From positions 9,293 to 73,292 of the forward strand of contig DYJA01000014.1 of NCBI GenBank assembly GCA_020723345.1: a DNA stretch of 64,000 nucleotides, in the 5' to 3' direction. A program made the translations under genes and the position numbers. This document shows positions 7,929 through 61,691 of this stretch, in pieces. Origin of the DNA: Candidatus Aquidulcis sp. Lineage in GTDB: Bacteria > Chloroflexota > Anaerolineae > UBA4142. The notes beneath the pieces are model-generated. The model searched no databases, had not been told where the DNA came from, and saw only the letters and a program-made list of their open reading frames with translations. Within the stretch, counting starts at the first letter, position 1; every line of letters begins with the position of its first letter.

Positions 7929-9167
7929 TTACACGCGCGCCGCCCAAATAATCTCCGGCTTGGCGCAATACTCCGCCGCGTCGTAGAAATCAGCCACGTT
8001 GACATTGCCCGCCGGCGCAGTCACAATTTCCAGCGGCACATCCACGTAATTTTCGCTTTGGCGATACGCGGCGAGTCTTCCGGTCTTGCCTTGCGCGAAC
8101 AGGCGCAGCGCGAGCATCGCGAAATTCATCGCGCCCAGCAAGTCCTGTCCGTCCGGTTCGCCGGTGCGAATCAAGTACGAAAGCGGTTGGAATAACATGC
8201 GCGCGCGCGCGATGTTTTCAAGGATCTCAGTCACCACCGCGCCGCTGCCGCCCACGCGCGAACCCAGGTCTTGCACCAATTCGAAAACAATCGAGTCCGG
8301 GGTCAGCCCCTGTCCGCCATGCTGCACCGCTTCGGCTAACAAGCGCGAATTCGCCAAGCGCGACAATTCGGGCAAGTACTTTGACACCTTATCCGGATCG
8401 AGCGCGGACGCCTCGCTCATCACGAGAATCGCATAATTTGCCGGGTTGCGCCGCTTGTCTTCGAGCAGCAATGCCACCAGCCGCTCCGGATCGAACGGGA
8501 CTTCCGGGACGAGCGTCCGATCCGCGCCCGCCAAGAACGAAATGAGCATCGTCGTCAAGCCGGTCGTGCGACCCAGCACTTCGATCACGGCGACTTCTTC
8601 GCGCGAGCCAGCCATCGCGCGCATCTCTTGCACGAAACGCACGCCGCGCGCGAGCGCGGTCGAAAAGCCGAGCGCGTAATCGCTGCCGTTCACGTCGTTG
8701 TGAACCGTTTTGGGAATGCCGATCACCGGCACGCCTGCCTTGTTCAAATGCGCGGCGTAATCCAACGCGCCGCGATCCCCCAGCACGATCAGCGCGTCCA
8801 GTCCAATCGCGCTTGCCGCGCGCTTGACCTGATCGGTCAAGTCGACCGGCTGGTCGCCTTGCTGGCGCGCGCGCAGGAAATTTGGAATACAGTCCGGCGC
8901 GCACGCGCGCGGATCGATGCGGCTCGAATGCAAGAACGCGCCCGCCATGCGATCGATATCGCGCACGCGCAGTTTGGTCAGCGGCATCGTGTTTTCGCCG
9001 TGGGTGGAAGGATCGTCCGGATCGTAATCGAGCAAACCTTCCCATCCTTTACGAATCCCGATGACTTCGTATCCTTGATCGAGCGCGCCGTACACAAGCG
9101 ATTTCAAACACATGTTTTGTCCCGGCGCATCGCCGCCGCCGGTCAGCAAGCCAATTCGTTTTGCCAT
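7929..9167 (-). CDS. phosphofructokinase-family (PfkA-like) protein with divergent active-site motifs
   Basis: Trimmed to MAKRIGLLTGGGDAPGQN... (ATG 9167, GAGG upstream). Clear PFK fold motifs, but GGDGS reads GDRGA and TIDND reads TVHND (see finding). Confidence 0.8.
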   Translation of the reverse strand: MAKRIGLLTGGGDAPGQNMCLKSLVYGALDQGYEVIGIRKGWEGLLDYDPDDPSTHGENTMPLTKLRVRDIDRMAGAFLHSSRIDPRACAPDCIPNFLRARQQGDQPVDLTDQVKRAASAIGLDALIVLGDRGALDYAAHLNKAGVPVIGIPKTVHNDVNGSDYALGFSTALARGVRFVQEMRAMAGSREEVAVIEVLGRTTGLTTMLISFLAGADRTLVPEVPFDPERLVALLLEDKRRNPANYAILVMSEASALDPDKVSKYLPELSRLANSRLLAEAVQHGGQGLTPDSIVFELVQDLGSRVGGSGAVVTEILENIARARMLFQPLSYLIRTGEPDGQDLLGAMNFAMLALRLFAQGKTGRLAAYRQSENYVDVPLEIVTAPAGNVNVADFYDAAEYCAKPEIIWAARV

Positions 9168-13754: not shown

Positions 13755-16550
13755 ATGAAACACTGGCATTCGTACCTCCTGCTCGCAAGCATCACGTTCT
13801 TCGCGTTCGCGCTGCGCGTGTTCCGCCTCGATTTTCAGCCGCTCTGGTGGGACGAGGGCTATAGCATTTTCTTCGCGACACGCGATTTTGCGACGATGCT
13901 CGAACGTACCGCCGTAGACATTCATCCACCGCTTTACTACGCGCTTTTGCAACTCTGGATGATCGTCGCGGGCAAAAGCGACATTGCCGCGCGGCTGCTC
14001 TCCGCCGTCATCGCCGTCGCGACAATTCCGTTGCTGTACGCGCTCGCGCGTGAATTACGCCCTCCCCTGTCAAAAACGGGGGAGGGTTGGGGTGGGGGTC
14101 ACCGCGTCGCGTTTCTCGCCGCGCTCTTGCTCGCGCTCTCGCCATTCCACATTTATTATTCGCAGGAAGTGCGGATGTACGGACTCGTGACGCTGCTTGG
14201 ACTCGCATCCGTGTACCTTTTCGCGCGAGTACTGCAAATGCCAGCCGGTACGCGCGCGAGTACCCTCATCGCAGGCGCGTACATTCTCGTGACGACTGCC
14301 GCGCTGTACACACAGTACTACGCCGCGTTCATCGTCGCGTTCCAAGTACTTTACGTTTTGATCGTCTATCGCGCGCGACTCGCACCGCTGATCCGCGCGT
14401 CGCTCAAATTCGATTTGCGCGCGCTGTGGAACAATCCGTTCGCGCACTGGCTCGGCGCGTGGTGCGCCATCGCGCTGCTCTATCTGCCCTGGATCATTTA
14501 CGCGGGACCCAAACTGTACGCTTATGTAACCTCAAAAATCGCGATTGAAAAATATTCGCCGCTCGATCCGATCACATTTATCGCGCAGCATCTCGCCGCG
14601 TTTTCCGTCGGACACTTGACCGCGTTCACGTGGCTCGCATGGGCGAGTGTCGCGATGATTGCGTTGGCGGTAATAGGCAGTATCCAAGTAGGCAAGGAAA
14701 CACGTAGACAAGGAAACAAGTCGCCCATCCACTTGTCTACTTGTCTACTTGTCTACCTGTCTGCCTGCGTCCCCCTCGCGCTCGGCTACCTCGTCAACCT
14801 GTTCTACCCGTTCCACCCCGTTCACGGCGAACGATTGCTGTTATTTGCCGCGCCCGCTTTCTATTTGCTGACCGCACTCGGCGTCAACGCGCTGTGGGAG
14901 CGTCGCGCGATTTTTGGCGCGCTTGCCGTGATCGTCGCCGCGATGATCTCTGCGTTTTCGCTTGCCGATTTCTACCACATTCCGCGCTATCCCAAAGACG
15001 ATTACCGCCCGCTCATCGCCGAAATGCGGACGCTCGCGCGACCCGGCGATACTTTCCTCGCGATCTATCCGTGGCAAATCGGTTATCTCGAAACGTACTA
15101 TCGCGGCGCGGCGCTCAGCATTGTCGAAACGCCGAACGACGCGTGGATCAAGAATCCCGCGCAGATGCAACGCGCGCTCGACGCGTACCGCGATCGGAAC
15201 GCGCGCGTCTGGCTGCCCGCGCTGCAAACCCAGGGACGCTTGCTCGAAGATGCGCTCGACAAATATTTGCGCGAACACGCGTACTCGGTCGTTGATAATT
15301 GGTACGGCACGACGCGGCTCGAATTGTTTGCGTTTGGGGACGATCCGCCGCTGCCGCGCGCGCCGCGCAACATCGTGTTCGAGGACAATACGACACTCGG
15401 CGACATTGGAATATCGCGCGAACCCGTCGCCGCCGGACAAGACATCGTACGAATTCGATTCGTCGGCGCAACGCGCGCGCCCACCAACGCGAGTTTCCGC
15501 TTGCTCGACAAAAATGGAAATACGTGGGCGCAGAGCGACCGCGAGATCGCGCGCGATTTGCAACGCATCGGCTTGGCGATTCCGCTTGGCACGCCACCCG
15601 GCGAGTACGATCTGCGCGTGACCGCGTACCGCGCCAACGACGGGTCGCGATTGCGCGTCAAAGATACAACGCAAGCAAGCGCGTCGCTGGCGACAATCCA
15701 AGTTGTCGCGCCCGCGCAACCCAATCATGCCGCGCTGCCGCATCGCACGCAAATTGATTTCAACAACGGTATCCGGCTTGTCGGCTACGACGCGCCGCCG
15801 ACGATTCGCCCCGGCATGCCCGCGCCGATCGCGCTGTTTTGGCAAACGACGCGCGCGCTCGACAGAGAGTACGCGGTTGTCCTGCAAATCCAGGATGCGC
15901 GCGGCAACGTTTTCGCGACGACGCAAGCCGCGCCCGCGCGCGGCATCTACCCGACGACGCGCTGGCAGCCCGGCGCAATCGCGCGCGATCCACAAACGAT
16001 CACGTTGCGCGGCGACGCGCCCGACGGCGAGTATCGCATCGTCGTCGCGCTGGTTGATGCGACGACCGGTGCGCGCACGTCGGCGCGTGAGATCGGATCC
16101 ATCATCGCGCAAGGACGCGCGCACTATTTCGGCGCGCCGGCGCCGTCGAACAAATTCGACGCGCGGTTTGACGACATCGCGCGATTGATCGGCTACGATG
16201 TTCAGACGGATCAACGCGCGGTTCGAGTCGTTTTGTATTGGCAGGCGCTCGCGACGCGCGAAACATCGTACACCGTTTTCGTTCACGTTGTCGACGCGAA
16301 CGGCGCCACACGCGCGCAAGGCGATCAAATTCCCGGCGTAGGCGCGTATCCGACGACGACCTGGGTCAAAGGCGAATATCTCGTCGACGTGTACGACATT
16401 TCGGTTCCGCGCGACGCGCCGCCGGGCGAGTACTCAATTCAAATTGGAATGTATGACGCGGCGACCGGCGCGCGCTTGCCTGCTTTCAATGAAAACAATC
16501 AAGCGGTTGGCGATTATATTCAATTGTCTACGCGAATCACGGTGCGATAA
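13755..16550 (+). CDS. glycosyltransferase family 39 (ArnT/PMT-like) membrane protein with large C-terminal extracytoplasmic domain
   Basis: 931 aa. The N-terminal ...FRLDFQPLWWDEGYSIFFA...DIHPPLYY... is typical of GT39/PMT_2, with many TM helices. Contains two palindromic repeat insertions (see findings). Confidence 0.85.
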   Translation: MKHWHSYLLLASITFFAFALRVFRLDFQPLWWDEGYSIFFATRDFATMLERTAVDIHPPLYYALLQLWMIVAGKSDIAARLLSAVIAVATIPLLYALARELRPPLSKTGEGWGGGHRVAFLAALLLALSPFHIYYSQEVRMYGLVTLLGLASVYLFARVLQMPAGTRASTLIAGAYILVTTAALYTQYYAAFIVAFQVLYVLIVYRARLAPLIRASLKFDLRALWNNPFAHWLGAWCAIALLYLPWIIYAGPKLYAYVTSKIAIEKYSPLDPITFIAQHLAAFSVGHLTAFTWLAWASVAMIALAVIGSIQVGKETRRQGNKSPIHLSTCLLVYLSACVPLALGYLVNLFYPFHPVHGERLLLFAAPAFYLLTALGVNALWERRAIFGALAVIVAAMISAFSLADFYHIPRYPKDDYRPLIAEMRTLARPGDTFLAIYPWQIGYLETYYRGAALSIVETPNDAWIKNPAQMQRALDAYRDRNARVWLPALQTQGRLLEDALDKYLREHAYSVVDNWYGTTRLELFAFGDDPPLPRAPRNIVFEDNTTLGDIGISREPVAAGQDIVRIRFVGATRAPTNASFRLLDKNGNTWAQSDREIARDLQRIGLAIPLGTPPGEYDLRVTAYRANDGSRLRVKDTTQASASLATIQVVAPAQPNHAALPHRTQIDFNNGIRLVGYDAPPTIRPGMPAPIALFWQTTRALDREYAVVLQIQDARGNVFATTQAAPARGIYPTTRWQPGAIARDPQTITLRGDAPDGEYRIVVALVDATTGARTSAREIGSIIAQGRAHYFGAPAPSNKFDARFDDIARLIGYDVQTDQRAVRVVLYWQALATRETSYTVFVHVVDANGATRAQGDQIPGVGAYPTTTWVKGEYLVDVYDISVPRDAPPGEYSIQIGMYDAATGARLPAFNENNQAVGDYIQLSTRITVR
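14059..14085. repeat. small GC palindrome inside the GT39 CDS (CCCTCCCC-N-GGGGAGGG followed by GGTTGGGGTGGGGG)
   Basis: ccctcccctgtcaaaaacgggggaggg, read in frame as PPLSKTGEGWGGG. Confidence 0.6.
14689..14768. repeat. short-period (8 nt, CTTGTCTA) palindromic array inside the GT39 CDS
   Basis: gtaggcaaggaaacacgtagacaaggaaacaag...cttgtcta cttgtcta cttgtcta cctgtctg cctg, read in frame as GKETRRQGNKSPIHLSTCLLVYLSACV. Confidence 0.8.
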
Positions 16551-16592
16551 AAAACGTAAGGGCGCAATTGAATTGCGCCCTTACGTTTTTTT
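16550..16592. terminator. bidirectional Rho-independent terminator built on a GGGCGCAATT-family palindrome (copy 1)
   Basis: aaaaacgtaagggcgcaattgaattgcgcccttacgttttttt. An A-run and a T-run flank a 13-bp stem. Lies just after the GT39 stop. Confidence 0.8.
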
Positions 16593-16732
16593 CTACAACG
16601 CTTCAACCACCGCCGCGATCCCTTGTCCGCCACCGATGCACATCGATGCGATGCCGTACCGCTTGCCGCGTCGCCGCAATTCGTACAGCAGACGCAACGT
16701 CAGCCACTGTCTACGCGAATCACGGTGCGATA

Positions 16733-16775
16733 AAAAACGGAAGGGCGCAATTGAATTGCGCCCTTCCGTTTTTTT
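16733..16775. terminator. bidirectional Rho-independent terminator, GGGCGCAATT family (copy 2, next to the thiolase stop)
   Basis: aaaaacggaagggcgcaattgaattgcgcccttccgttttttt. Differs from copy 1 by a compensatory pair (T..A -> G..C). Confidence 0.8.
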
Positions 16776-17966
16776 CTACAACGCTTCAACCACCGCGGCA
16801 ATTCCTTGTCCGCCACCGATGCACATTGATGCGATGCCGTACCGCTTGCCGCGCCGCCGCAATTCGTACAGCAGACGCAGCGTGAGCCACGCGCCCGTCG
16901 CGCCGAGCGGATGACCGATCGCGATCGCGCCGCCGTTGACGTTGAATTTTTCCATGTCGATGCCGAGTTCCTTCACGCACGCGAGAACTTGCGCCGCGAA
17001 CGCTTCGTTGATCTCGATCAGATCCATTTGCTCGAGCGACAGTCCGGCTTTCTTCAGCGCGATTTTGATCGCGGGCACCGGACCAATCCCCATGATCTTC
17101 GGATCGACTCCGGCGACGCCCCACGATACCAATCGCCCCAACGGTTTCAAACCGCGCGCTTGCGCGTTCGCCAGCGTTGTGACGACAACCGCCGCCGCGC
17201 CATCGACGATCCCGGACGCGTTGCCTGCTGTGACTGTGCCCCCTTCTTTTTTGAATCGCGCCGGAAGCCGCGCCAATCCTTCGATTGTCGCGTCAGGACG
17301 GATCGCTTCATCCTTCGCGAACATCGTCACGTTCCCTTTGCGATCCTTCAGCGGCACCGGCACGATTTCGTCTTTCATTCGCCCGGCATCCCATGCCTGC
17401 TTCGCAAATTGCTGATCGCGCAGCGCGAAACGATCTTGCTCTTCGCGCGTGATGTGACACTGCTCCGCGAGGTTTTCCGCGGTGATCGCCATCGGCAAGC
17501 CGGTGTACGAATCGATCAGCGCGGTCCACAACATGTCTTCGAACGGCGCGCTCGCGCCAAAGCCGATGCCCCAGCGTGCGCCGCGGACGACGTGCGGCGC
17601 TTGGCTCATCGATTCGGTGCCGCCCGTCAGCACGAAATCGGCTTCGCCGCTAATGAGCATACGCGCGCCCATCACGATCGCTTCCTGCCCCGAGCCGCAC
17701 AAACGATTGACCGTTACCGCGGGCTTGTCAATCGGCACGCCGGATTTCAAGCCGACGTGACGCGCGAGATAAATCGCGTCCGGGCTTGTCTGCACGACGT
17801 TGCCCAAAACGGTGTGATCGATCCACGCCGGGTCCACTTGCGCGCGTTCGAGCGCGCCCTTTGCGGCAATCGCGCCGAGATCGGTCGCGCTCTGCTCTTT
17901 CAAACTTCCGCCGAACGCGCCAAACCCGGTTCGAACTCCTTCCAGTAAAACGATGTCAGTCGCCAT
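16776..17966 (-). CDS. acetyl-CoA C-acetyltransferase (thiolase II)
   Basis: 396 aa. NRLCGSGQEA (active-site Cys), GNASGIVDGAA, and C-terminal CIGGGQGIA signatures. Confidence 0.95.
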   Translation of the reverse strand: MATDIVLLEGVRTGFGAFGGSLKEQSATDLGAIAAKGALERAQVDPAWIDHTVLGNVVQTSPDAIYLARHVGLKSGVPIDKPAVTVNRLCGSGQEAIVMGARMLISGEADFVLTGGTESMSQAPHVVRGARWGIGFGASAPFEDMLWTALIDSYTGLPMAITAENLAEQCHITREEQDRFALRDQQFAKQAWDAGRMKDEIVPVPLKDRKGNVTMFAKDEAIRPDATIEGLARLPARFKKEGGTVTAGNASGIVDGAAAVVVTTLANAQARGLKPLGRLVSWGVAGVDPKIMGIGPVPAIKIALKKAGLSLEQMDLIEINEAFAAQVLACVKELGIDMEKFNVNGGAIAIGHPLGATGAWLTLRLLYELRRRGKRYGIASMCIGGGQGIAAVVEAL

Positions 17967-19584: not shown

Positions 19585-19617
19585 AGAAACCCGTTTTCGC
19601 AAGGAAAACGGGTTTCT
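19585..19617 (-). terminator. Rho-independent terminator after glnA
   Basis: agaaacccgttttc gcaag gaaaacgggtttct. The minus-strand reading is followed by TTATTTTC. Confidence 0.8.
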
Positions 19618-22442: not shown

Positions 22443-22500
22443 GCAGTATTCAGTGTTCAGTATCCGGTTTTCAGACTGAACACTGAATACTGAATACTGC
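22443..22500. repeat. heptamer-array hairpin (same TTCAGTR / YACTGAA family as 7057 and 44688)
   Basis: gcagtattcagtgttcagtat...actgaacactgaatactgaatactgc. Lies between the M16 stop and the repeat-protein start. Confidence 0.9.
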
Positions 22501-23784
22501 CTACTGTTCGCTGTTCACCGGTCCCGCAATCGCCAGCGCGTAATGCTCCGCCTGCGCGTACTTGCGCGTGGCGGCAAGAATCTGCTCCGGCGTGATCGCG
22601 CGAATGATATTGGGGTATCGCTGCAAATAATCCAACCCCAGACCGAAGAGTTCAATCTCGCCCAGAGTTCCAGCGACGCCATCGTTCGTTTCCAGGCGCA
22701 GCGCGAGCGAACCGGTGATGAAATCGCGCGCCTCGTTGAATTCGTCTTGGGTAACTGGCGCGGAGGCGAGTCGCCTGATTTCGGCGACAACGCCGTCAAT
22801 CGCGCGCTCGACATTCTTGGGATTGACGCCCGCGCGCACGCTCCAGGGTCCCGCGCCCAGCCCCGCCTCGATTCCGCTCATCACATAGTACGCCAACCCT
22901 TGTTGATCGCGCACGCTCGCGCCCAGTCGCCCGAACAAACCCAAGCGTCCAAAAATCAAATCGCCGACCGACAACGCGTAATAGTCTGGATCATTACGGC
23001 GCAAACCGGGAAAACCCAGCACGATGTCTGCCTGAGTCTTGCCGTCCAGCGGCATAATCTTGCGCGTGATTCCATCAAGCGGAGACGGATCCGGAATGAC
23101 GTACGGCTCCGGCTTGCCGCGCGCGCGCCATTTGCCGAACGCGCGCTCGATCTTGGCGATAGCTTGTTCTGCGCGCACATCACCAACCACGACGATGGTC
23201 GTGACGTCCGGGCGAAAATAGCGCGCGTGAAAAGCGCGCAGTTGATCGAACGTCATCCGCTTGACGGTCGCGGGAGTGCCGTCGGACAAACGATGGTACG
23301 GATGCGTCACCGGATAACACAATTTGCGAAACTCGCGATACGCGACGTGCTGGGTATCTTGATCGGCTTCCTTGAGATCGGCGAGAATTTCCGCGCGCAG
23401 TTTTTCGGTCTCGGCACGCGGGAAAACCGGATGGATCACCACGTCCGCCGCTACATCGAGGAGGCGATCAAAATCCTCAACGAGCGATTTGCCGCTAAAG
23501 CCAATCGTCTCGGTGCCCGCGCCAATGCCGAACGACATTCCAAAGCGGTCGAGTTCTTCGTTCAATTTTTGAAACGTGCGCTTGCGCGTGCCGCGTTGCA
23601 GCGCCGCCGTCGCAAAGTGCGCGAGACCGTTCACCTTGGCAGAATCGAACAAGCCGCCCGCGCGCATTCGTCCGCGCAACGTGATCGAAGGATTGTTCGG
23701 ATTATCTTTGACCAGCACGGTCAATCCGTTATCGAGCGTAACGCGCGTGACGGTTTCGGGAGTAATCGGCAGCGTCGTATTCAT
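22501..23784 (-). CDS. M16-family peptidase subunit (no HxxEH seen; beta-like)
   Basis: 427 aa with M16 N- and C-domains. Adjacent to the HxxEH-bearing paralogue. Confidence 0.85.
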   Translation of the reverse strand: MNTTLPITPETVTRVTLDNGLTVLVKDNPNNPSITLRGRMRAGGLFDSAKVNGLAHFATAALQRGTRKRTFQKLNEELDRFGMSFGIGAGTETIGFSGKSLVEDFDRLLDVAADVVIHPVFPRAETEKLRAEILADLKEADQDTQHVAYREFRKLCYPVTHPYHRLSDGTPATVKRMTFDQLRAFHARYFRPDVTTIVVVGDVRAEQAIAKIERAFGKWRARGKPEPYVIPDPSPLDGITRKIMPLDGKTQADIVLGFPGLRRNDPDYYALSVGDLIFGRLGLFGRLGASVRDQQGLAYYVMSGIEAGLGAGPWSVRAGVNPKNVERAIDGVVAEIRRLASAPVTQDEFNEARDFITGSLALRLETNDGVAGTLGEIELFGLGLDYLQRYPNIIRAITPEQILAATRKYAQAEHYALAIAGPVNSEQ

Positions 23785-25106: not shown

Positions 25107-25176
25107 AATTCATAATTCAAAATTCGTAATTCAAAACTCACACTTGGAATTTCGAATTACGAATTTCGAATTTTCA
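25107..25176. repeat. heptamer-array hairpin (AATTCRW / CGAATTW)
   Basis: aattcat aattcaa aattcgt aattcaa aactcacacttgg aatttcg aattacg aatttcg aattttc. Lies between the mdh stop and the M16 start. Confidence 0.9.
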
Positions 25177-26115
25177 AATCCCCATCACCTTGTTCAACGC
25201 ACGCACCGCTTCGCCCGATTTTTGCAGCGCCGCCAATTCTTCCGCGTTGAGATTGAACTTGACGATCTCTTCAACTCCCCGCGCGCCCAATCGCACCGGC
25301 ACTCCGGCAAAGACACCTTTGATCCCGTACTCGCCGTCCAGATACGCGATGCACGGCAGAATCTTTTTCTTGTCGAACATGATCGCATCGACCATATCGA
25401 GGACCGCCGCGCTGGGCGCGAAGAATGCCGAACCGGTCTTGAGCAGGTTCACCACTTCTGCGCCGCCGTCGCGCGTCCGCTTGACCAGCGCGTCGATCTT
25501 TTCTTTCGGCAGCAATTCGGTGATCGGCACACCCGCGACCGTCGTGTAGCGCGGCAGCGGCACCATTTGATCGCCGTGCGCGCCGAGGACGTACGCGTCC
25601 ACGTTTTGCACCGACACGCCGAGTTCTTGCGCGACGAACGTGCGAAAGCGCGCGCTGTCGAGCACACCGGCTTGACCGATAACGCGATGTTTCGGAAACT
25701 GGGTGACGTGCCACATCAATTGCGTCATCGCGTCGACCGGATTCGTCACGACGATGACCATGGCGTTCGGCGCGTGCTTGGCGATTTGCTCCGCCCACCC
25801 GCCGACGATTTGCATGTTCGTGAGAATCAGATCGTCGCGGCTCATGCCGGGCTTGCGCGTGATGCCGGCGGTCATCACGACAATGTCCGAATTCGCGATC
25901 TTTTCGTAGCCCGCGCCATCCTTGATCGTGACGCCGCTGACATTTACGTCGTATCCGAGAATCGGTCCCGTTTCGAGCAAATCCAACGCCTTGCCTTCCG
26001 CGACGAATTCCGTCACATCGGCAAGCAGCACATCCGCGTAATTCCGTTCCGCTATGCGTTGCGCGGTTGTCGCGCCGACAAAACCCGCGCCGACCACCGT
26101 AATTTTCTTATGCAC
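25174..26115 (-). CDS. mdh: malate dehydrogenase (LDH-like family)
   Basis: Trimmed to GTG 26115 (GGAAGGA upstream): [18 protein letters not shown]... Has the Rossmann motif and GAHGD. Overlaps the upstream gene by 8 nt. Confidence 0.88.
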
Positions 26116-35370: not shown

Positions 35371-35394
35371 CACCCTCATACCGAAAATCTTTTC

Positions 35395-35457
35395 CACGAA
35401 GGACACGAAGATCACGAAGGATTCTTGATCTGCTTCGTGTCCTTCGTGTTCTTTGTG
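35395..35457. repeat. short-period (9 nt, CACGAAGGA) hairpin
   Basis: cacgaagga cacgaagat cacgaagga ttcttgatctg cttcgtg tccttcgtg ttctttgtg. Lies between the GT2 stop and the methyltransferase start. Confidence 0.85.
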
Positions 35458-35468
35458 AAACAAACGGA

Positions 35469-36390: not shown

Positions 36391-36410
36391 TCACGCTTCA
36401 CGCATCACGT
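36391..36410. repeat. three ACGC/TCACG heptamers forming the 3' end of the MFS CDS
   Basis: tcacgct tcacgca tcacgt. Same heptamer family as 1567-1634 and 55522-55546. Confidence 0.6.
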
Positions 36411-37873: not shown

Positions 37874-38647
37874 TCACGCCGTCGCGACAATCACCAGATC
37901 CGCCGATGTCTCCGCGTCGAACGGCTCGCCTTGCAAACTGCCATAGAACGCAAATTCGCGAAATCCATTCCGACGCAATAGCAACTCAATTTCGTCTTGC
38001 CGGTACGGTCTCTGTTGCGTGCTCTGCACATCTACTGACCAAACACCGTTTTCGTTCTTGGTGAACAGCGCGATGTTGAACGTAATCAAGCCCGACGGTT
38101 CGTCGTAATCCGCGAACCGCCACACGAGCGTTTCGCGTTCGTCGAGCGTGCCTGCATTCACCGCGAACCAGCGCGGCTTGTCCTTCCAGCGTTTGTCGTA
38201 ATTCAAGTTGTGCAGAATCAACACACCGCCCGAGCGCAAACAACCGCGCATATTCAATACGCTTTCGAGCGCGGCAGTGTCCGTCAAAACATGCGGAAAC
38301 GAATTGCCCAAGCACAACACCGCGTCGAACGGCGCGTTGAACGTCGCATACAAATCCTGAAAGCGCGCGACGGCGAAGGGAATCGTCACGCCCGCGCGTT
38401 GCGCGTTTGCTTGTGCGCGCGCGATCATCTGCGCGCTGATGTCGCTGCCGGTGACGCGATAGCCGCGCTGGGCGAGCGCAATCGCGTGACCGCCCGTTCC
38501 GCACGCGCAGTCGAGCACCGATTGGACGTTGTGACGCGCGAATGTTGCTTCGAGAAACGGCAATTCGACCGCGAGGCGACTTTGCCAATCGGTCATCACG
38601 TCGAAAAAATCCGCAAGCCGGTCGTAGAATTCAGTTTCACTCAACAT
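37874..38647 (-). CDS. class I SAM-dependent methyltransferase
   Basis: SVLDCACGTGGHAIALAQRGYRVTGSDIS is motif I. Overlaps the mevalonate kinase stop by 7 nt. Confidence 0.85.
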   Translation of the reverse strand: MLSETEFYDRLADFFDVMTDWQSRLAVELPFLEATFARHNVQSVLDCACGTGGHAIALAQRGYRVTGSDISAQMIARAQANAQRAGVTIPFAVARFQDLYATFNAPFDAVLCLGNSFPHVLTDTAALESVLNMRGCLRSGGVLILHNLNYDKRWKDKPRWFAVNAGTLDERETLVWRFADYDEPSGLITFNIALFTKNENGVWSVDVQSTQQRPYRQDEIELLLRRNGFREFAFYGSLQGEPFDAETSADLVIVATA

Positions 38648-39591
38648 TCGTTTATTCGTTCCTCATTCGTTGACACCTGCGACACAACCACGCGCCGCGC
38701 GCCCGCGTCCAACAGCGCGCGCGCAATGTTGTCTTGTGTAACCTCGTCCACGAGCGCGATCACGTTGCCGCCGCGCCCTGCCCCCGAAAGTTTCGCGCCG
38801 CGCGCGCCCGCGCGCAATGCCGCGCTCGCGAGCGTTTCGATTTCTGGCGATGACACGCCGATCTCGCGCAACAACATTTGATTCGCGTTCATCAGCCCGC
38901 CGAGCGCGTCCACGTCACCCCGCTCAATCGCGCGGCGCGCGTCGCGCGCAACCGCGCCGATTTGATCGAAGAGCGATTCGTAGCGCGCGCGGTCGGCTTC
39001 CCGCGCGCGGCGCACATCGCCAACCGCGATTTTCGTCGGCGCGGCGACGCCGGTATCGGCAATCGCCAGCGTGAACGGACGCGCAACACGAAATGATTCA
39101 ATCGGCTGACCGCGCACAAAGTACACGGGCTGCTCGAACGCGATCACGGTATTGTCGATTCCGCTTGGCGTGCCGTGATGCAATTTCTCGGTTTCAAAGA
39201 CGAGCGCGGACACTTCGACTGCGCTCAGTGTGACGTCGAAATATTTTGCCAACGCGCGCGCGATGGCAACAGACACCGCCGCGCCGCTGCCCATTCCACT
39301 CGCCATCGGAATCGTCGAATGGATTCGCACGGAAAAATTTTGCGGCGCGACGTTCAGCCGCGCGCAGGTCGCTCGAATGATCGTCGCGATTGGATCGTCG
39401 GCGGGTGCGTCGCTCAAATCGTACACGCGCGCGAGATCGACCGCGTCGATCACAACACGTAAATCCGCGCGCGCCTCAATCGTCGCTTCCGCGCGCACTT
39501 GAAACACCGGCACGGCAATCGCCGGACGCGCGTAGACGACGGCGTGCTCGCCGAAAAGAATTATTTTGCCCGGGGCAGTTGCAATGGTCAT
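38641..39591 (-). CDS. mvk: mevalonate kinase (GHMP family)
   Basis: APGKIILFGEHAVVY, PMASGMGSGAAVSVA and KLSGAGRGGN are GHMP motifs I-III. The track start (TTG 39612) lies in a repeat, so ATG 39591 is preferred. Confidence 0.8.
   Translation of the reverse strand: MTIATAPGKIILFGEHAVVYARPAIAVPVFQVRAEATIEARADLRVVIDAVDLARVYDLSDAPADDPIATIIRATCARLNVAPQNFSVRIHSTIPMASGMGSGAAVSVAIARALAKYFDVTLSAVEVSALVFETEKLHHGTPSGIDNTVIAFEQPVYFVRGQPIESFRVARPFTLAIADTGVAAPTKIAVGDVRRAREADRARYESLFDQIGAVARDARRAIERGDVDALGGLMNANQMLLREIGVSSPEIETLASAALRAGARGAKLSGAGRGGNVIALVDEVTQDNIARALLDAGARRVVVSQVSTNEERINEC
38646..38677. repeat. ATTCGTTTATTCGTTC-N4-ATTCGTTGACACC repeat, copy encoding the mvk C-terminus
   Basis: attcgtttattcgttcctcattcgttgacacc. 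The minus strand reads ...QVSTNEERINEC stop and overlaps the methyltransferase start. Confidence 0.8.
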
Positions 39592-39597
39592 AGGCAA

Positions 39598-39668
39598 GCA
39601 GTAATCAGTCAATCAGGCGATCAGTAATCAGGCAACTGGTCGACTAGTCGACCGATTGCCTGATTGAC
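39598..39668. repeat. heptamer-array hairpin (AATCAGK) around the central palindrome GGTCGACTAGTCGACC
   Basis: gcagtaa tcagtca atcaggc gatcagt aatcagg caactggtcgactagtcgaccgattg cctgatt gac. Lies in the divergent region between mvk and the CNNM operon. Confidence 0.85.
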
Positions 39669-39694
39669 GGCTTAACCGCCTTTCGTGTTATAAT
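39664..39694 (+). promoter_or_regulatory. candidate promoter of the CNNM operon with extended -10
   Basis: TTGACG (39664-39669, inside the heptamer hairpin arm), 19-nt spacer, TGTTATAAT (39686-39694). Confidence 0.45.
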
Positions 39695-42362: not shown

Positions 42363-44686
42363 TGCCCACGGAACCCCAAATCAAATCCAGAATCCTGACG
42401 CTCTTTCTCGAACTGAGTCAATATCCGATCCTCGCGCCCGGTATCCGCGCCCGGATGCGCGAAGAGTTGTTCGCGCGCGGCGTCATTACGCGCGACGCGT
42501 TCGAAGATGAAGTACACGCCAAAGCGCGCCGGTCGCAAGAGATCGAAGGGTTGGTGGATCCGCTCAATCAAGAGCCGCCTGAAATATGGGAACGCCGGAC
42601 GCAGCAAGTGCGCGATACGTTGACCGATTTTTATTTTGCTTACAACCTGCCGCACGATTTGTTCAAGGACATCGTGCAAGCCGCCGTCGCGCAGCGCAAC
42701 CCAAATCAAAAAGTGATCTTGTCTTTCCATCCCGAACTCGCGCCGATTGATATGGTGCTCGCGCAAGGCGAACAATACGAACATTTGCCGGAAGCCGAGC
42801 GCGCTCAGGTCAAACACCACTACGAAGAAATGATCGTCGTGCTGCTCAAGGCGCTCATCAGCGATCAGTTAGCGTTCGTCCGCGTGGCGAAAGATTATTT
42901 CACGGTGGCGGACATTCGCGAAATTCGCAAACATCGCATCGGCGAGGGAAAAATCGGCGGCAAGGCGGCGGGCATGTGGCTCGCGTGGAAAATCATGCAG
43001 GCGCACGCCGTCGCGGAGGGACTCGATCCGAACGACATCATCATGCCGAGTTCGCACTATATCGGCGCGAACGGGCTGTACGAATTCAACGTCCAGAACA
43101 ATTTGCTTTTTTCGGTGGATCAAAAATACAAACCGCGCGCCGAGATCGAATCCGAGTACCCCGGCATCGTCCAGCAATATCTCGACGCGCGGCTGCCCGA
43201 TTACATGATGGAGCGCTTGTACGAACTCCTCGCGGAAATCGGCAATTGCGCGCTGATCGTCCGCTCGTCGAGTTTGCTCGAAGATTCTTTCGGCACGACC
43301 TTCGCGGGCAAGTACGATAGTTTCTTTTTGCCGAATCAAGGTTCCATCGAAGAGAATCTGGAAGAATTGGCGACCGCCGTCAAGCGCATCTACGCGAGTG
43401 TGATCAATCCCGACGCGCTCGCGTACCGGCAACGCATGGGCTTGGTTGATTACGACGAGCGCATGGCGATCCTGATTCAAGAAGTGCAAGGCGATCATCA
43501 CGGACGATTTTTATATCCGACGCTTGCGGGCGTTGGGTTCAGTCGCAATCCGTTCCGCTGGAATCCGCAGATTCGCCGCGAAGACGGATTCTTGCGTCTG
43601 GTGTGGGGCTTGGGCACACGCGCGGTCGAACGCGTCGGCAACGATTTTCCGCGCATGGTCGCGCTCAGCCATCCGCACTTGCGCCCCGAGCCGAACGCGT
43701 ACGAAATGAAACGTCACTCGCAACGCTATGCCGATGTGATCGATCTGGAGGATAACGCGCTCGTCACGCGTCCGATCGCGGAAATTCTGCCGCTGGATGA
43801 TCCCGCGCTGCCGTACCTCGCGTCGGAAGACAAGGACGATTACCTCCAGCCGCTCTTCTCCGATCCCCAACTCGTCCCGCCCGACCGGCTCGTACTCACG
43901 TTCGACGGCGTGCTGAAGAAAACGCCGCTCGTGCCAACGATGAAAGCGATCCTCAAACGCTTGGAGACGACGTACAAATCCGCGGTGGACATCGAATTCA
44001 CCGCCGACATTATCACCGAGGATTCCAAGCAGCCGCGCATCGTCGTTCACCTTTTGCAATGCCGACCGCAGACGCAGTATGAAGCCGGGCAGCGCGTGGA
44101 AATCCCGCAGAACATTCTGCCGGTCAACAAGATTTTCTCGGCAAAGCGGCTGGTGCAACAAGGCGTCGTGTCGGACATCGAGTACATCGTGTACGTCAAT
44201 CCCGAAAAATACAGCCAGTCCGCTCCCTCCATTACGAAACTGGAACTCGCGCGGATTGTGGGGCGACTCAATCAACGCTTGGAGGGGAAAACGTTTATCC
44301 TGATGGGACCGGGGCGCTGGGGCAGTTCGAACCCCGACCTGGGTTTGCCGATCACGTACGCCGACATCAACAATACGCGCGTCTTGGTCGAAATCGCGCT
44401 GCCGCGCGGCGAAGGCATTCCGGATGTTTCGTACGGCACGCACTTTTTCCAGGATTTGGTCGAGACGCGCATTTATCCACTGCCGCTCTTCCCGGCGGAC
44501 CCCGGCACGGTCTTCAATCGCGCGTTTTTCCACGATGCGCCGAACGTGTTCGAGACGCTGTTGCCGCAGGACGCGGAGTACGCCGAGTACATCAAAGTAA
44601 TTCATGTGCCGACAGCCGCGCGCGGTCGTCATCTTCACGTCGTGATGAACGAGGAAAAAGGCGAGGCACTCGCGTACATCAAGTAG
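42362..44686 (+). CDS. PEP/pyruvate-binding (PPDK_N, ATP-grasp) domain protein with no recognisable phosphohistidine swivel domain
   Basis: 774 aa. GGKAAGMWLA...IVRSSSLLEDSFGTTFAGKYDSF... is the PPDK_N pattern. No GGxTSHAA motif seen. TGATG overlap with the preceding gene. Confidence 0.75.
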   Translation: MPTEPQIKSRILTLFLELSQYPILAPGIRARMREELFARGVITRDAFEDEVHAKARRSQEIEGLVDPLNQEPPEIWERRTQQVRDTLTDFYFAYNLPHDLFKDIVQAAVAQRNPNQKVILSFHPELAPIDMVLAQGEQYEHLPEAERAQVKHHYEEMIVVLLKALISDQLAFVRVAKDYFTVADIREIRKHRIGEGKIGGKAAGMWLAWKIMQAHAVAEGLDPNDIIMPSSHYIGANGLYEFNVQNNLLFSVDQKYKPRAEIESEYPGIVQQYLDARLPDYMMERLYELLAEIGNCALIVRSSSLLEDSFGTTFAGKYDSFFLPNQGSIEENLEELATAVKRIYASVINPDALAYRQRMGLVDYDERMAILIQEVQGDHHGRFLYPTLAGVGFSRNPFRWNPQIRREDGFLRLVWGLGTRAVERVGNDFPRMVALSHPHLRPEPNAYEMKRHSQRYADVIDLEDNALVTRPIAEILPLDDPALPYLASEDKDDYLQPLFSDPQLVPPDRLVLTFDGVLKKTPLVPTMKAILKRLETTYKSAVDIEFTADIITEDSKQPRIVVHLLQCRPQTQYEAGQRVEIPQNILPVNKIFSAKRLVQQGVVSDIEYIVYVNPEKYSQSAPSITKLELARIVGRLNQRLEGKTFILMGPGRWGSSNPDLGLPITYADINNTRVLVEIALPRGEGIPDVSYGTHFFQDLVETRIYPLPLFPADPGTVFNRAFFHDAPNVFETLLPQDAEYAEYIKVIHVPTAARGRHLHVVMNEEKGEALAYIK

Positions 44687-44687
44687 A

Positions 44688-44757
44688 CAGTTTTCAGTAT
44701 TCAGTTTTCAGTGTTCAGATCGCGTACTGAATACTGAATACTGAATACTGAATACTG
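44688..44757. repeat. heptamer-array hairpin (CAGTWTT x4 / AATACTG x5)
   Basis: cagtttt cagtatt cagtttt cagtgtt cagatcgcg tactg aatactg aatactg aatactg aatactg. Lies between the convergent PPDK_N-like and HlyD genes. Confidence 0.9.
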
Positions 44758-44763
44758 GATTGT

Positions 44764-47177: not shown

Positions 47178-47614
47178 TTTCGTAGACCTCCCACGTGATT
47201 TGTGGAGAGCGACAATTGGAACGAGCCAGTCACCACGCGCACCCAAAGCATCGTCAAAGCGAAGATCATCACCGCGCCCAGCGCCACCGGCGTCGGATCG
47301 AGATTATTCGCAATCGCGTTCGCGGCGATCCAGAACGCCTCGATCACTTTGTTCACCCAAAACGCGATCACTCCAACCGCACTGGGCAAAGTGATGATCA
47401 CTTGCGGATTCGTGATGAGCAACCAACCTACTGACGCGAGTTCAAACGCGACGAACAGAATGACGGCGATTGCCGCGCCGACGAGCAAAGCGGATCCGAT
47501 CAATGCTCGCCGCCGCGCGCGCACGCGTTCGCGTTCGGCGAGGCGCGTCATCACGCGCGTCGTAAAGCCCGGCGCGGGTGAAATCATCACAAAGCGATCT
47601 TGGTTCTCCATCAC
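47174..47614 (-). CDS. putative anti-sigma factor (membrane protein)
   Basis: Overlaps the ECF sigma stop by 4 nt. Short cytoplasmic N-terminus and 3-4 TM helices. Assignment is by position. Confidence 0.55.
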   Translation of the reverse strand: MMENQDRFVMISPAPGFTTRVMTRLAERERVRARRRALIGSALLVGAAIAVILFVAFELASVGWLLITNPQVIITLPSAVGVIAFWVNKVIEAFWIAANAIANNLDPTPVALGAVMIFALTMLWVRVVTGSFQLSLSTNHVGGLRK

Positions 47615-48219
47615 AAACTCACTCCTCGCTTGACCGCTGACCGCAGACCGTTGACCGCCGCGGCTGTCGGCGGTCGTCCGTCGGCGGTCATTGCACGCGC
47701 CAACGCGCGCCGCGCGCGGTGGAGTTTCACCTTGACCGCGCCCACCGAATCGCCGGTCGTCTGCGCGATCTCTTCGACCGACTGCTCGTGCCAGTACTTG
47801 AGCACGACGACCAAGCGATACGCCGGGGACAGTCGTTCCAGCGCACCCGCGATTTCTTGCGCGCTCTCATGCCGCAGCGCCTCGTTGGCTGGCTCGGGCG
47901 CGTCGCTCGCCAACGACTCGTCGAGCGCGTCGTCTTCGAGCGACAGCCACAGGAACTTGCGGCGGCGCAGGCGATCGATGCAGTGATGCGCGGCAATCGA
48001 AAGTAGCCATGTCGCGAATTTCTGATCGACCCGGAATGTTTTCAATTGCGAATACGCGCGCAGAAAAGTTTCCTGCGCCGCGTCTTCGGCATCGTTGGCA
48101 TTGCCCAACATGCGATACGCCAGATTGTACACGGGCATCTGGTACATTTCGACGAGTTGAGCAAAGGCATTTTGATCGCCGCGTTGCGCGCGCGGCACGA
48201 GCGACTGCTCTTCCAACAT
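47611..48219 (-). CDS. ECF-type RNA polymerase sigma-70 family factor
   Basis: Region 2 (DAEDAAQETFLRAY...FATWLLSIAAHHCIDRLRRR) and region 4 (EIAQTTGDSVGAVKVKLHRAR). Confidence 0.9.
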   Translation of the reverse strand: MLEEQSLVPRAQRGDQNAFAQLVEMYQMPVYNLAYRMLGNANDAEDAAQETFLRAYSQLKTFRVDQKFATWLLSIAAHHCIDRLRRRKFLWLSLEDDALDESLASDAPEPANEALRHESAQEIAGALERLSPAYRLVVVLKYWHEQSVEEIAQTTGDSVGAVKVKLHRARRALARAMTADGRPPTAAAVNGLRSAVKRGVSL

Positions 48220-52968: not shown

Positions 52969-53793
52969 CTATCTTCCCCACCGCGCTTTTTCCTGCTCCG
53001 TCACGCGCGCCGTCAAATCAAGCGCCAACAGCGAAACTGAAACGACGTGATCGATCATCACCGCGCGCACATCTGAATCGAGTTCCGGCGTTTCGGGATC
53101 GAGGCACAATTCGTACGTATCGAGCGACTTGCCGCGCGGTGTCTGCGTAATCACCGAACGATAATAGTTTTTCCGCGAGACGCGCGTCCAACGCCACGAC
53201 GTCGTCTCGCGCGCATTCTCCGGCACATTCACGTTGACGACGTCCGCACCGCGCGGCATTCCGCGTTCGAGAATTCGCCGCGCAAATTTTTTCGCGAAAT
53301 GTCCTGCGATCGTAAAATCAATTTCGTCGCTGTGCGTGAAATGATATTTCGTGTGTACGACGCGCGAGACCGCCAGCGACGGGAAACCCATACTCGCCGC
53401 CTCCAGTGCTGCGCCAATCGTCCCCGAAATCGTCACGCCGTTACCAACATTCTCGCCATAATTGATTCCCGAAACAATCAACGCCGGTCGACGTTCCGCG
53501 CACACCAACACCGCGTACCGCACCGCCATCGCCGGCGACGCGGCAACCGCGAACGCGCGCACGCGCTTGCCGTCCACGCGATACTCGACCGGTTCAGCCG
53601 CGCCGCCGCCGCTGAACGAACGTCCCATCGAAGTCTGCTGATCGCGCGGCGCGACGATCAACAATTCGCCCAAGTCCCGCAGCGCCTCTGCCAACGCGTG
53701 CAGTCCCGGCGATTCGACGCCGTCGTCGTTCACGAGAACAATGAGGGGAATCTCTGATTTTCGATTTATGATTTTCGATTTATCTTTTAGCAT
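52969..53793 (-). CDS. surE: 5'/3'-nucleotidase SurE
   Basis: LIVLVNDDGVESPGL...GINYGENVG are SurE motifs. The first ~14 codons (MLKDKSKIINRKSE) are encoded by a heptamer repeat, so the true start is uncertain. Confidence 0.85.
   Translation of the reverse strand: MLKDKSKIINRKSEIPLIVLVNDDGVESPGLHALAEALRDLGELLIVAPRDQQTSMGRSFSGGGAAEPVEYRVDGKRVRAFAVAASPAMAVRYAVLVCAERRPALIVSGINYGENVGNGVTISGTIGAALEAASMGFPSLAVSRVVHTKYHFTHSDEIDFTIAGHFAKKFARRILERGMPRGADVVNVNVPENARETTSWRWTRVSRKNYYRSVITQTPRGKSLDTYELCLDPETPELDSDVRAVMIDHVVSVSLLALDLTARVTEQEKARWGR
53753..53788. repeat. direct heptamer array (TTCGATT/TATGATT) encoding the annotated SurE N-terminus
   Basis: tctgatt ttcgatt tatgatt ttcgatt tatcttt. This is the reverse complement of the AAATCGAAAATCATAAATCG family seen at 32541. 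Confidence 0.8.
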
Positions 53794-61656: not shown

Positions 61657-61691
61657 CAGAAACCCGTTTTCCGCAAGAAAACGGGTTTCTG
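61657..61691 (-). terminator. terminator-like hairpin with the same stem sequence as 19585-19617
   Basis: cagaaacccgttttc cgcaa gaaaacgggtttctg. Lies after the SdpI-like gene. Weak T-run (CTTT). Confidence 0.6.

Follow-up and report, generated by a model that had tools for sequence, protein, structure and literature searches.

The systems closest to the locus presented here are small repeats that occur in, or next to, bacterial genes. As set out in passages of Di Nocera et al. (2013, PMC3733652), Rickettsia palindromic elements (RPEs) are small palindromes inserted in frame in genes that stay functional, sometimes as double or nested inserts in one gene, and the repetitive extragenic palindromes (REPs) of the GTAG/CGTC type are imperfect palindromes of 20-40 bp, located for the most part directly 3' of genes, in spacers flanked by convergent or co-directional open reading frames (ORFs). 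The same passages place a minority of GTAG/CGTC REPs inside ORFs, as singles or dimers, with in-frame cases in Opitutus, Thauera and others (PMC3733652). PARCELs are coding repeats with dyad symmetry whose translation alternates in hydropathy, and they are frequent in membrane-targeted proteins (PMC2996958). The heptamer repeats of cyanobacteria and Beggiatoaceae (STRR; TAACTGA) are direct repeats, with one inverted set reported, that are mostly intergenic and in a few cases lie within ORFs in a stop-free orientation (PMC4679880). Here we describe two hairpin-forming segments, site 1 and site 2, that are read in frame within one glycosyltransferase (GT) gene, ORF 13755-16550, on a 64,000-nucleotide stretch of contig DYJA01000014.1 of Candidatus Aquidulcis sp. 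(the window, whose first letter is position 1). They behave like intragenic REPs and RPEs but appear to fall outside those sequence families. We propose that they are probably tolerated, selfish or neutral hairpin repeats of REP/RPE-like kind that have been filtered into permissive loops of a functional GT-C gene. That palindromes can reside in frame was already known from the RPEs of Rickettsia, and later from REPs in several phyla, and the concept is unchanged by the GT case.

The host gene lies on the plus strand and encodes 931 residues in an unbroken frame, its translation including the peptides ...ELRPPLSKTGEGWGGGHRVAF... and ...IQVGKETRRQGNKSPIHLSTCLLVYLSACVPLALG.... The N-terminal half forms an ArnT/PMT-like membrane domain of ~11 helices and the C-terminal half is a beta-sandwich. 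A Pfam scan returned PMT_2 (E 8.8e-7, 29.7 bits against a cutoff of 26.1), a weak match to DUF4625 and nothing else. The best of its 1293 homologues match 97-100% of the ORF's length, several of them carry the NCBI label 'glycosyltransferase family 39' and come from Chloroflexota or Anaerolineae metagenome-assembled genomes (MAGs), and the gene order ABC ATPase, S8 peptidase, two small genes, GT gene and thiolase is conserved in relatives. The AlphaFold2 (AF2) model, built from an alignment of 40 sequences, has a mean confidence (predicted local distance difference test, pLDDT) of 84.6 and is beta-rich at residues ~430-931, and Foldseek matches its membrane part to ArnT (5ezm/5f15, TM-score 0.55, target-normalised), Pmt4 (9i5k) and AglB (7e9s). 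Residues W31, W32, D33, E34, G35 and Y36 are invariant in the homologue alignment. With PMT_2, a multi-helix GT-C fold, a conserved acidic motif within its first extracytoplasmic loop and a soluble domain at the C terminus, the protein is best assigned from sequence and model to the ArnT/PMT-type GT-C glycosyltransferases; 'GT39', the name under which the locus had been described, is the NCBI label of homologues, and GT83 is the alternative CAZy family. By the same evidence and synteny the gene looks intact and functional. Two further observations concern this gene. The C-terminal half (~15045-16550, aa ~430-931) is predicted to be a series of beta-sandwich domains with best Foldseek matches to macroglobulin (MG) domains of complement C3/C5 and of bacterial alpha-2-macroglobulin, and such an MG-like series is an unusual partner for an ArnT/PMT-like membrane domain. 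On two metagenome contigs (P0018 and P0013 clusters) the orthologue is called as two pieces, of 125 + 794 aa and 229 + 393 aa, with breaks that fall outside both sites; a frameshift, a sequencing error or a real pseudogene is possible there.

A preliminary description, made from the letters of the window alone, had picked out both segments as palindromic repeats translated within an open frame. Both are present with the translations given, and both fold as strong hairpins. Site 1 forms a 12-bp stem, GCCCTCCCCTGT / ACGGGGGAGGGT (14059-14070 / 14076-14087, plus strand; hairpin 14059-14087), closed by a 5-nt loop, with a predicted RNA folding energy of -32.6 kcal/mol and a z-score of -3.6, none of 200 dinucleotide shuffles being as stable. 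Its CCCTCCCC-N-GGGGAGGG motif occurs once in the window against 0.00 expected. The G-rich tail (14078-14098, plus strand, GGGGGAGGGTTGGGGTGGGGG) overlaps the 3' hairpin arm and fits the G-quadruplex consensus on the sense strand, as one of only two such motifs on both strands of the 64 kb. Relative to orthologues, the extra sequence is the 36 nt, or 12 codons, from 14061 to 14096 on the plus strand, in frame and encoding PPLSKTGEGWGG, with a boundary that is ambiguous by about one codon. The region measures 41 residues in the window protein and 29-30 residues in 36 of the 40 aligned sequences. At the DNA level the insert is common to the window, orthologue L161 (78% identity) and the pair L162/L081 (73% and 71%), and is absent from the syntenic orthologue L163 (71%) and from every other orthologue compared; of 169 homologues, 147 span 14-16 codons here, the length without an insert, and ~22 have extra sequence. 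Most orthologues thus have no homologous residues at this position, and site 1 is a discrete in-frame insertion confined to the window and its closest relatives, in support of the in-frame residence suggested by the preliminary description.

The same position has received other elements. A further 30-nt hairpin (CCCCCGAAGCGAAGCGGAGCGGGGG) is nested within the site 1 insert of L162/L081. In L166 an unrelated palindromic element of ~120 nt lies at the identical codon boundary, between the Leu-Phe codons and (N/D)xRVA, and encodes ...VIASAAKQSP...LLAMT, and unrelated hairpins or tandem repeats are inserted at the site 1 position in L150, L149, L014, L136 and L038. The orthologue sequences show that this position has been used repeatedly by unrelated hairpin inserts across lineages. 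In the AF2 model site 1 is a coil between helices 76-101 and 115-128, and the insert includes the sole segment with a pLDDT below 50 (aa 106-113).

Site 2 (14685-14768, plus strand) is of a different build: a hairpin of ~84 nt made of 8- and 16-nt tandem units within a loop of variable length. The purine-rich left arm (14685-14721) consists of GTAGGCAAGGAAACAC / GTAGACAAGGAAACAA, a 16-nt composite unit present 1.9 times, and encodes QVGKETRRQGNK. The pyrimidine-rich right arm (14731-14768) has three copies of ACTTGTCT followed by ACCTGTCT GCCTGC, counted as four copies of ACTTGTCT over 14731-14767 by tandem-repeat analysis, and encodes LSTCLLVYLSAC. The arms at 14685-14721 and 14731-14767 are 76% complementary, and the exact 9-mer CTTGTCTAC occurs in the window three times on the plus strand (14732, 14740 and 14748) and once on the minus strand (14704). 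The predicted folding energy is -33.6 kcal/mol with a z-score of -5.1, and none of 200 shuffles is as stable. It should be noted that the raw minimum free energy in sliding windows is confounded by local GC content, site 2 being less GC-rich than the gene, and shuffle-based z-scores are used instead.

Between conserved anchors, the site 2 region varies from 46 to 96 residues in the close homologues of the 40-sequence alignment, and its loop spans 51 to 219 nt across the 169 homologues, the sequence within it being repeat-derived and not conserved protein sequence. Short tandem repeats are found here in almost all of 18 orthologues compared at the DNA level, and in 10 of these the hairpin is significant (z <= -3.4, unmatched by any of 150 shuffles); the average z of control windows taken from these genes is ~0. 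The units vary among orthologues yet the arms match each other: GTAGACAAG / CTTGTCTAC in the window, L163, L168 and L169, GGAGACAAG / CTTGTCTCC in L167, GGGAGACAGGGAGA / TCTCCCTGTCTCCC in L170, GCAGGGGAGCAG / CTGCTCCCCTGC in L161, and GGAGAGTGTGGGAG / CTCCCACACTCC in L084. Since L166, L001 and L002 retain pyrimidine-rich repeats alone, the hairpin is not universally maintained. A related GTAGACAAG / GGAGACAAG hairpin is found in orthologues down to ~60% identity; the site 2 hairpin is thus the older of the two, changes rapidly and does not represent a recent colonisation. In distant homologues at least five other element types occupy the site, namely a 207-nt double insert (L004), a GGGGAGGG-type hairpin (L149), eleven copies of CATCCTGC (L115), hairpins of their own that are unrelated (L010/L091), and GTAGGCAG units (L101). 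In the AF2 model the site 2 loop is a break at residues 319-323, between helices 293-318 and 324-350, and is the part of the membrane domain with the next-lowest confidence after the site 1 segment.

The history of site 2 also differs from that of the rest of the gene. By whole-gene distances the sister of the window is L161. Within the segment 14604-14799 (plus strand, gene nt ~850-1045), however, sliding identity of the window is 80-90% to L163 and 39-63% to L161, and a quartet bootstrap gives (window, L161) in 497 of 500 replicates outside the tract and (window, L163) in 500 of 500 inside it. This conflict of phylogenies implies that the hairpin-bearing segment was exchanged between lineages, and on these comparisons we regard the site 2 tract as a recombined segment.

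The fine structure of site 2 suggests that coding has constrained it. Were the left arm to mirror the right one exactly, as (AGACAAGT)n, each of the three frames would meet a TAG within eight codons; in fact it consists of GTAG(A/G)CAAG alternating with GAAACA(C/A), and its TAGs lie out of frame. None of the six frames of the GGAGACAA and TTGTCTCC units contains a stop, and tandem arms are more regular in the orthologues with these units. Surviving units must be stop-free in the frames that are read, which would explain why the hairpin of the window is asymmetric, and coding constraint has shaped it. We take the stop-avoiding left arm together with the stop-free units of orthologues as direct, sequence-level evidence that the frame is under selection and that the protein is presumably made. 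The same rule can be followed outside the GT gene: the intergenic units CAGTATT, CGTGATG and TGACCGC are open on one strand each, and a heptamer array within an epimerase gene of the window, in the open orientation and with no inverted partner, is consistent with this.

The two arms also encode different kinds of peptide. Of the 15 distinct site 2 hairpins scored, 10 combine a 5' arm of 67-87% purine, whose peptide is hydrophilic (Kyte-Doolittle values of -0.5 to -3.1), with a 3' arm of 15-30% purine, whose peptide is hydrophobic (+0.9 to +1.8). The purine arm gives a K/R/Q/E/G loop, and the pyrimidine arm gives the hydrophobic start of the helix that follows: as the loop break of the model lies at 319-323, the right arm would supply the first turns of helix 324-350, in its N-terminal part. 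The preliminary description had suggested that the inserts might add loops or even a hydrophobic segment to a membrane enzyme, and both are borne out in the predicted structure, with loop residues at the two sites and an extension of a transmembrane (TM) helix at site 2. GT-C enzymes (ArnT, PglB/AglB, PMT) have an extracytoplasmic C-terminal soluble domain. Counting the AF2 helices back from this domain, we infer that site 1, site 2, including the loop encoded by its left arm, and a third variable loop (aa 206-231) lie on the cytoplasmic side, and the K/R content of all three loops agrees with this placement. The invariant WWDEGY and YYSQEVRMYG motifs would lie on the periplasmic side, away from both sites. 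The third length-variable loop, which is predicted to be cytoplasmic, corresponds to 14361-14453 of the window (aa 203-233). In the orthologues L163, L168, L170, L162/L081, L169 and L043 it holds in-frame direct arrays of heptamers or octamers, such as (TCACTCG)x5 in L170 and (CATTGGCT)x4 in L043, and L162/L081 and L168 have an additional insert of PFDYAQGK type. In the window itself this loop (aa 206-231) has no significant structure (z 0.3).

How, then, does this locus compare with the described systems? Like RPEs, the segments form hairpins, and they reside in frame in an intact gene, site 1 as an insertion relative to orthologues that lack it. They likewise encode short peptide segments at tolerated positions, and the nested insert of L162/L081 recalls the RPE-bearing genes that passages of PMC3733652 describe. 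The RPEs, however, form defined multi-copy families in Rickettsia, whereas sites 1 and 2 measure 36 and ~84 nt, lie in Chloroflexota and have no second copy in the DNA searched; site 2, moreover, is built of tandem 8-mers. An RPE is ~100-150 bp in length. As for homology to RPE-1 to RPE-8, the host belongs to Chloroflexota by the names of its homologues and Rfam gives no match, the consensus sequences themselves having not been directly compared. The term 'RPE-like', as first applied to the segments, thus holds for their behaviour and not for membership of the Rickettsia families.

With the GTAG/CGTC REPs there is at most a partial likeness of sequence, in that the GTAGGGGCGCAATT palindromes of the window and the site 2 units GTAGACAAG / GTAGGCAAG start with GTAG, but the stem of site 1 lacks GTAG and the units of orthologues are headed by GGAG or GCAG. 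The hairpin class of the window is abundant at gene ends; high copy number and association with RAYT transposases are features of REPs, and 64 kb are seen here. Arms made of tandem 7-8-mers are not described for GTAG/CGTC REPs in passages of PMC3733652. The PARCELs resemble the GT sites as dyad-symmetric coding DNA with a translation that alternates between hydrophilic and hydrophobic, and differ in having a conserved 25-residue motif, long tandem arrays and host ORFs of unknown function, where we find a single hairpin in a conserved enzyme; no 25-residue periodicity is seen at the GT sites, and the Pfam matches are confined to PMT_2 and the weak DUF4625. Compared with the STRR/TAACTGA heptamers, the typical arrangement in the window is an array that faces its own reverse complement and forms a hairpin, an inverted-array architecture of which we found no description in the literature searched.

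We now put forward a hypothetical course of events for the GT gene. Both segments would be small hairpin repeats of the REP-like class that fills the intergenic spacers, now resident in frame. Site 1 would have arisen as a discrete 36-nt insertion in a recent ancestor of the lineage, and site 2 would be an older resident, a hairpin of 8-nt units that has since been altered through slippage of the units, mutations preserving the match between the arms, and one or more recombination events. Such hairpin sequences probably arise or land in many places and would persist in coding DNA only if their length is divisible by three, no unit has a stop in the frame that is read and the protein tolerates the extra residues. 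The tolerant places would be the short cytoplasmic loops TM2-TM3 and TM8-TM9, across the membrane from the catalytic loops, and their tolerance would account for the repeated colonisation by unrelated elements across the family. We propose that the hairpins are read passively by translation, presumably with no function for the host. Because complementary codons have opposite hydropathy, the purine arm would become a linker rich in K/R/E/Q/G, which would fit the positive-inside rule for a cytoplasmic loop, and the pyrimidine arm a stretch of L/S/V/C/Y that merges into the TM helix. What the sequences and the model show are the hairpins themselves, their insertion status, the repeated use of the two sites, a frame that stays open, a confident fold, the mapping of the arms onto hydropathy and the recombination signal; the cytoplasmic topology, the neutrality and the mechanism of origin are inferred parts of the proposal.

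Several points weigh against it. No second copy of either segment was found in the 64 kb or, outside the orthologous sites, in 1.37 Mb of fetched Chloroflexota loci, so that membership of a mobile multi-copy family is not shown, although dispersal at low copy number may have been missed with 64 kb of the source genome covered. The comparison of orthologue DNA revealed no target-site duplication at site 1, and no RAYT-type transposase turned up, in work that included no genome-wide search and no systematic search of the window genes. The cytoplasmic assignment depends on the AF2 helices, on the rule for GT-C C-terminal domains and on the positive-inside rule. The site 2 hairpin could, furthermore, be a local product of slippage and template switching and not an insertion, and selection could be acting on the structure, given that matched arms persist over ~40% protein divergence and that hairpins are about ten times more frequent at site 2 than in control regions. 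The last two points lead to distinct explanations.

The first is that the site 2 hairpin (GTAGACAAGGAAAC), and the tandem 7-8-mers more broadly, are immobile and arose in place within a permissive low-complexity linker, through replication slippage of short units and intramolecular template switching that copies one arm from the other; the hairpin would then be a mutational by-product. The lack of another copy of the site 2 sequence in the window or the fetched loci is in keeping with such an origin, as are arms that are tandem arrays of one short unit, changes common to all unit copies of an arm, which point to concerted evolution, and the hairpin-free direct heptamer arrays that several orthologues have in the third cytoplasmic loop. 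Slippage is also suggested by the one length change seen within closely related sequences: in 10 clusters of at least 90% identity the length of site 2 is kept in 40 readable sequences, even for an 8-copy array, with the sole exception of an in-frame indel of 15 nt (5 aa) within the repeats between P0157 and P0156, which are more than 90% identical. Local generation fits less well with the sharply bounded, discrete insert at site 1, inside which a second hairpin is nested, or with the unrelated palindromes of distant homologues at both sites (L166 at site 1, L004 at site 2). Such palindromes may resemble dispersed repeat families of many genomes. The site 2 segment has, moreover, been moved by recombination, and a hairpin of the GGAGACAA type is found in a second genome, that of a distant Anaerolineae MAG: within ORF 1306-2382 of its locus L027, GGAGACAA/GTCTCC arms at 1530-1600 are translated in frame as GGQGDKETRGQEEGLPLSPSPPL, as part of a Pro/Thr-rich protein that is unrelated to the GT and has a membrane anchor at its N terminus. 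This hairpin type is thus dispersed. We consider local generation a serious alternative for site 2, with an appreciable chance of being right, if clearly the smaller one.

A second explanation is that the hairpins, above all that of site 2, are selected as nucleic-acid structures, to pause the ribosome at TM8-TM9 for co-translational membrane insertion, to control mRNA stability, or to sequester a Shine-Dalgarno (SD)-like purine arm (AAGGAG / AAGGAA) by an anti-SD-like partner. Hairpins with z < -3 occur at site 2 in 17 of the 169 homologues and in 2 and 1 at two control regions, the arms remain matched as the units change among orthologues, the purine arm often has an SD-like AAGGAG or GGAGG, and the position directly before a TM helix is constant. 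On the other hand, 8 of the 18 orthologues have no significant hairpin at site 2, several of them keeping pyrimidine-rich repeats alone, the majority of distant homologues have no hairpin (median z -0.17), and site 1 is absent from most homologues and hence not required. Nor does the sense strand fold best. In 15 of the 18 orthologues the antisense strand is the more stable at site 2, by a mean of 6.5 kcal/mol, so that most mismatches must be A.C, not G.U, in the mRNA. Neither hairpin is followed by a U-tract, a terminator scan gave no terminator-like site at either, and Rfam returned no match above its gathering threshold in the whole window. We therefore regard selection for structure as quite unlikely, even though a structural role finds some footing in the enrichment and the matched arms. 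Two candidates can be set aside: an internal intrinsic terminator at sites 1 and 2 was rejected on the negative terminator scan, and a match near the sites to a miRNA precursor family (E = 0.13, the only Rfam match at E <= 1) was taken as chance.

Still less probable is a contingency locus at which slippage of the 8-nt repeats would shift the frame and switch the GT on and off (phase variation). The likeness is a short tandem repeat, with a unit that is not a multiple of three, in the gene for a glycosyltransferase that is predicted to have an extracytoplasmic domain, and phase variation is common among surface-modifying enzymes. The difference is that site 2 has only 3-4 unit copies, with no frameshift variants among close relatives: apart from the 5-aa indel its length is constant, no frameshifted allele, and hence no frame-shifting polymorphism of copy number, was seen in the 40 readable cluster sequences, and all 169 homologues read through in frame. 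These sequence comparisons largely refute phase variation, which we regard as highly improbable. Finally, the ORF could be read as a pseudogene, a fusion of two genes or, at the repeats, an artefact of assembly. Nothing but the unusual composition of the two segments would speak for this, and it is refuted by full-length homologues, conserved synteny, the presence of site 1 in independent assemblies from different samples (L161, L162, L081), a P0004 allele on 20 contigs with a site 2 hairpin 87-91% identical to that of the window, and a confident AF2 model across both sites.

If the segments are tolerated hairpin repeats, as we prefer, the locus adds a well-controlled example, with orthologues that have and lack the inserts, from the Chloroflexota, a phylum known largely from MAGs. 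Across one enzyme family, many unrelated hairpins have independently colonised a shared set of two or three cytoplasmic loops, which would provide a map of permissive sites in a GT-C enzyme. A simple survival rule for coding repeat units, that they be stop-free in the frames read, comes with it, as does a clear illustration of how a purine arm becomes a loop and a pyrimidine arm a helix. For annotation, RRQGDKETR...LSPSLLVSL, PLSKTGEGWGGG and RGAINCVPT in MAG proteins would signal repeat-derived inserts and not conserved domains, and such inserts inflate apparent divergence and create local recombination signals. A bolder extension would be that hairpin repeats are a systematic source of new membrane-protein sequence in Chloroflexota, with the cytoplasmic loops of GT-C enzymes as recurrent landing pads for inserted, nested and recombined cassettes; a stop-free hairpin at a loop/helix boundary would then supply both a charged loop and a hydrophobic extension of the helix. 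In a stronger form, the retained matching of the arms would mean that the site 2 hairpin is selected in its own right, for example as a co-translational pause signal before TM9. We think this extension unlikely at present.

The GT gene is one instance of a genome-wide phenomenon. Many short intergenic spacers of the window hold hairpins with arms of tandem 7-9-mers, placed at gene ends, and sites 1 and 2 have architecture, not sequence, in common with them. The intergenic-repeat character that the preliminary description had seen in the segments is accordingly a matter of shared hairpin architecture, as no sequence copy of an intergenic family is found at either site in the 64 kb. Intergenic hairpins whose tandem arms face their reverse complement lie at 1567-1635, 1909-1973, 3199-3277, 7057-7122, 7873-7929, 22444-22506, 25107-25177, 35392-35460, 39592-39680 and 44678-44760, of which those starting at 7057, 22444 and 44678 have a CAGTATT-type unit in common, and the individual sequence families have 2-4 copies each in 64 kb. 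The differences in folding between their plus and minus strands are modest except at 25107-25177, and we do not rely on them, since they are not set against the direction of transcription.

Five further coding copies had been listed for the window. Two of these are internal to a gene, on the minus strand within an epimerase of the SDR (short-chain dehydrogenase/reductase) type. The first (55221-55248) is a GTAG-headed palindrome, GTAGGGGCGCAATT/AATTGCGTCCCTAC, read in frame as RGAINCVPT just before the YxxxK motif and adding ~7 aa relative to the PDB homologue 3wj7. The second (55522-55546) is the heptamer array mentioned above, (GCATCAC)x3.4, read as ASRITHHVS, present only in the stop-free orientation and lacking an inverted partner. 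The other three lie at gene termini: 36391-36410 comprises the last codons and the stop of a major facilitator superfamily (MFS) gene, 38646-38677 is a gene junction, and 53753-53788 spans the first 12 codons of SurE, for which the true start is uncertain. A hairpin of TGACCGC/GCGGTCA heptamers (47631-47690, minus strand) encodes the C-terminal 25 residues of an extracytoplasmic function (ECF) sigma factor (ORF 47611-48219); the ORF that follows, anti-sigma-like, begins 4 nt ahead of the stop codon of the sigma factor ORF.

The spacers contain GTAGGGGCGCAATT / AATTGCGCCCCTAC-type palindromes as well. The family with the core GGGCGCAATT(N)AATTGCGCCC has intergenic copies at 4606-4648, 16549-16591 and 16732-16774 in addition to the epimerase copy at 55221-55248; the copies at 4606 and 55221 have the GTAG head, and those at 16549 and 16732 read CGTAAGGG and CGGAAGGG. 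Another palindrome, AGAAACCCGTTTTC-loop-GAAAACGGGTTTCT, occurs twice (19585-19617 and 61657-61691), both times at gene ends. Directly downstream of the GT gene, 16525-16890 is a tandem duplication of 183 nt (2.0 copies, 95% identical) that covers the last 26 nt of the GT ORF, a perfect palindrome of 21+21 bp that is flanked by A6/T7 and forms a bidirectional terminator, and ~115 nt at the 3' end of the thiolase gene, which is convergent with the GT gene. The duplication thus leaves a pseudo 3' end of both the GT and the thiolase gene in the spacer.

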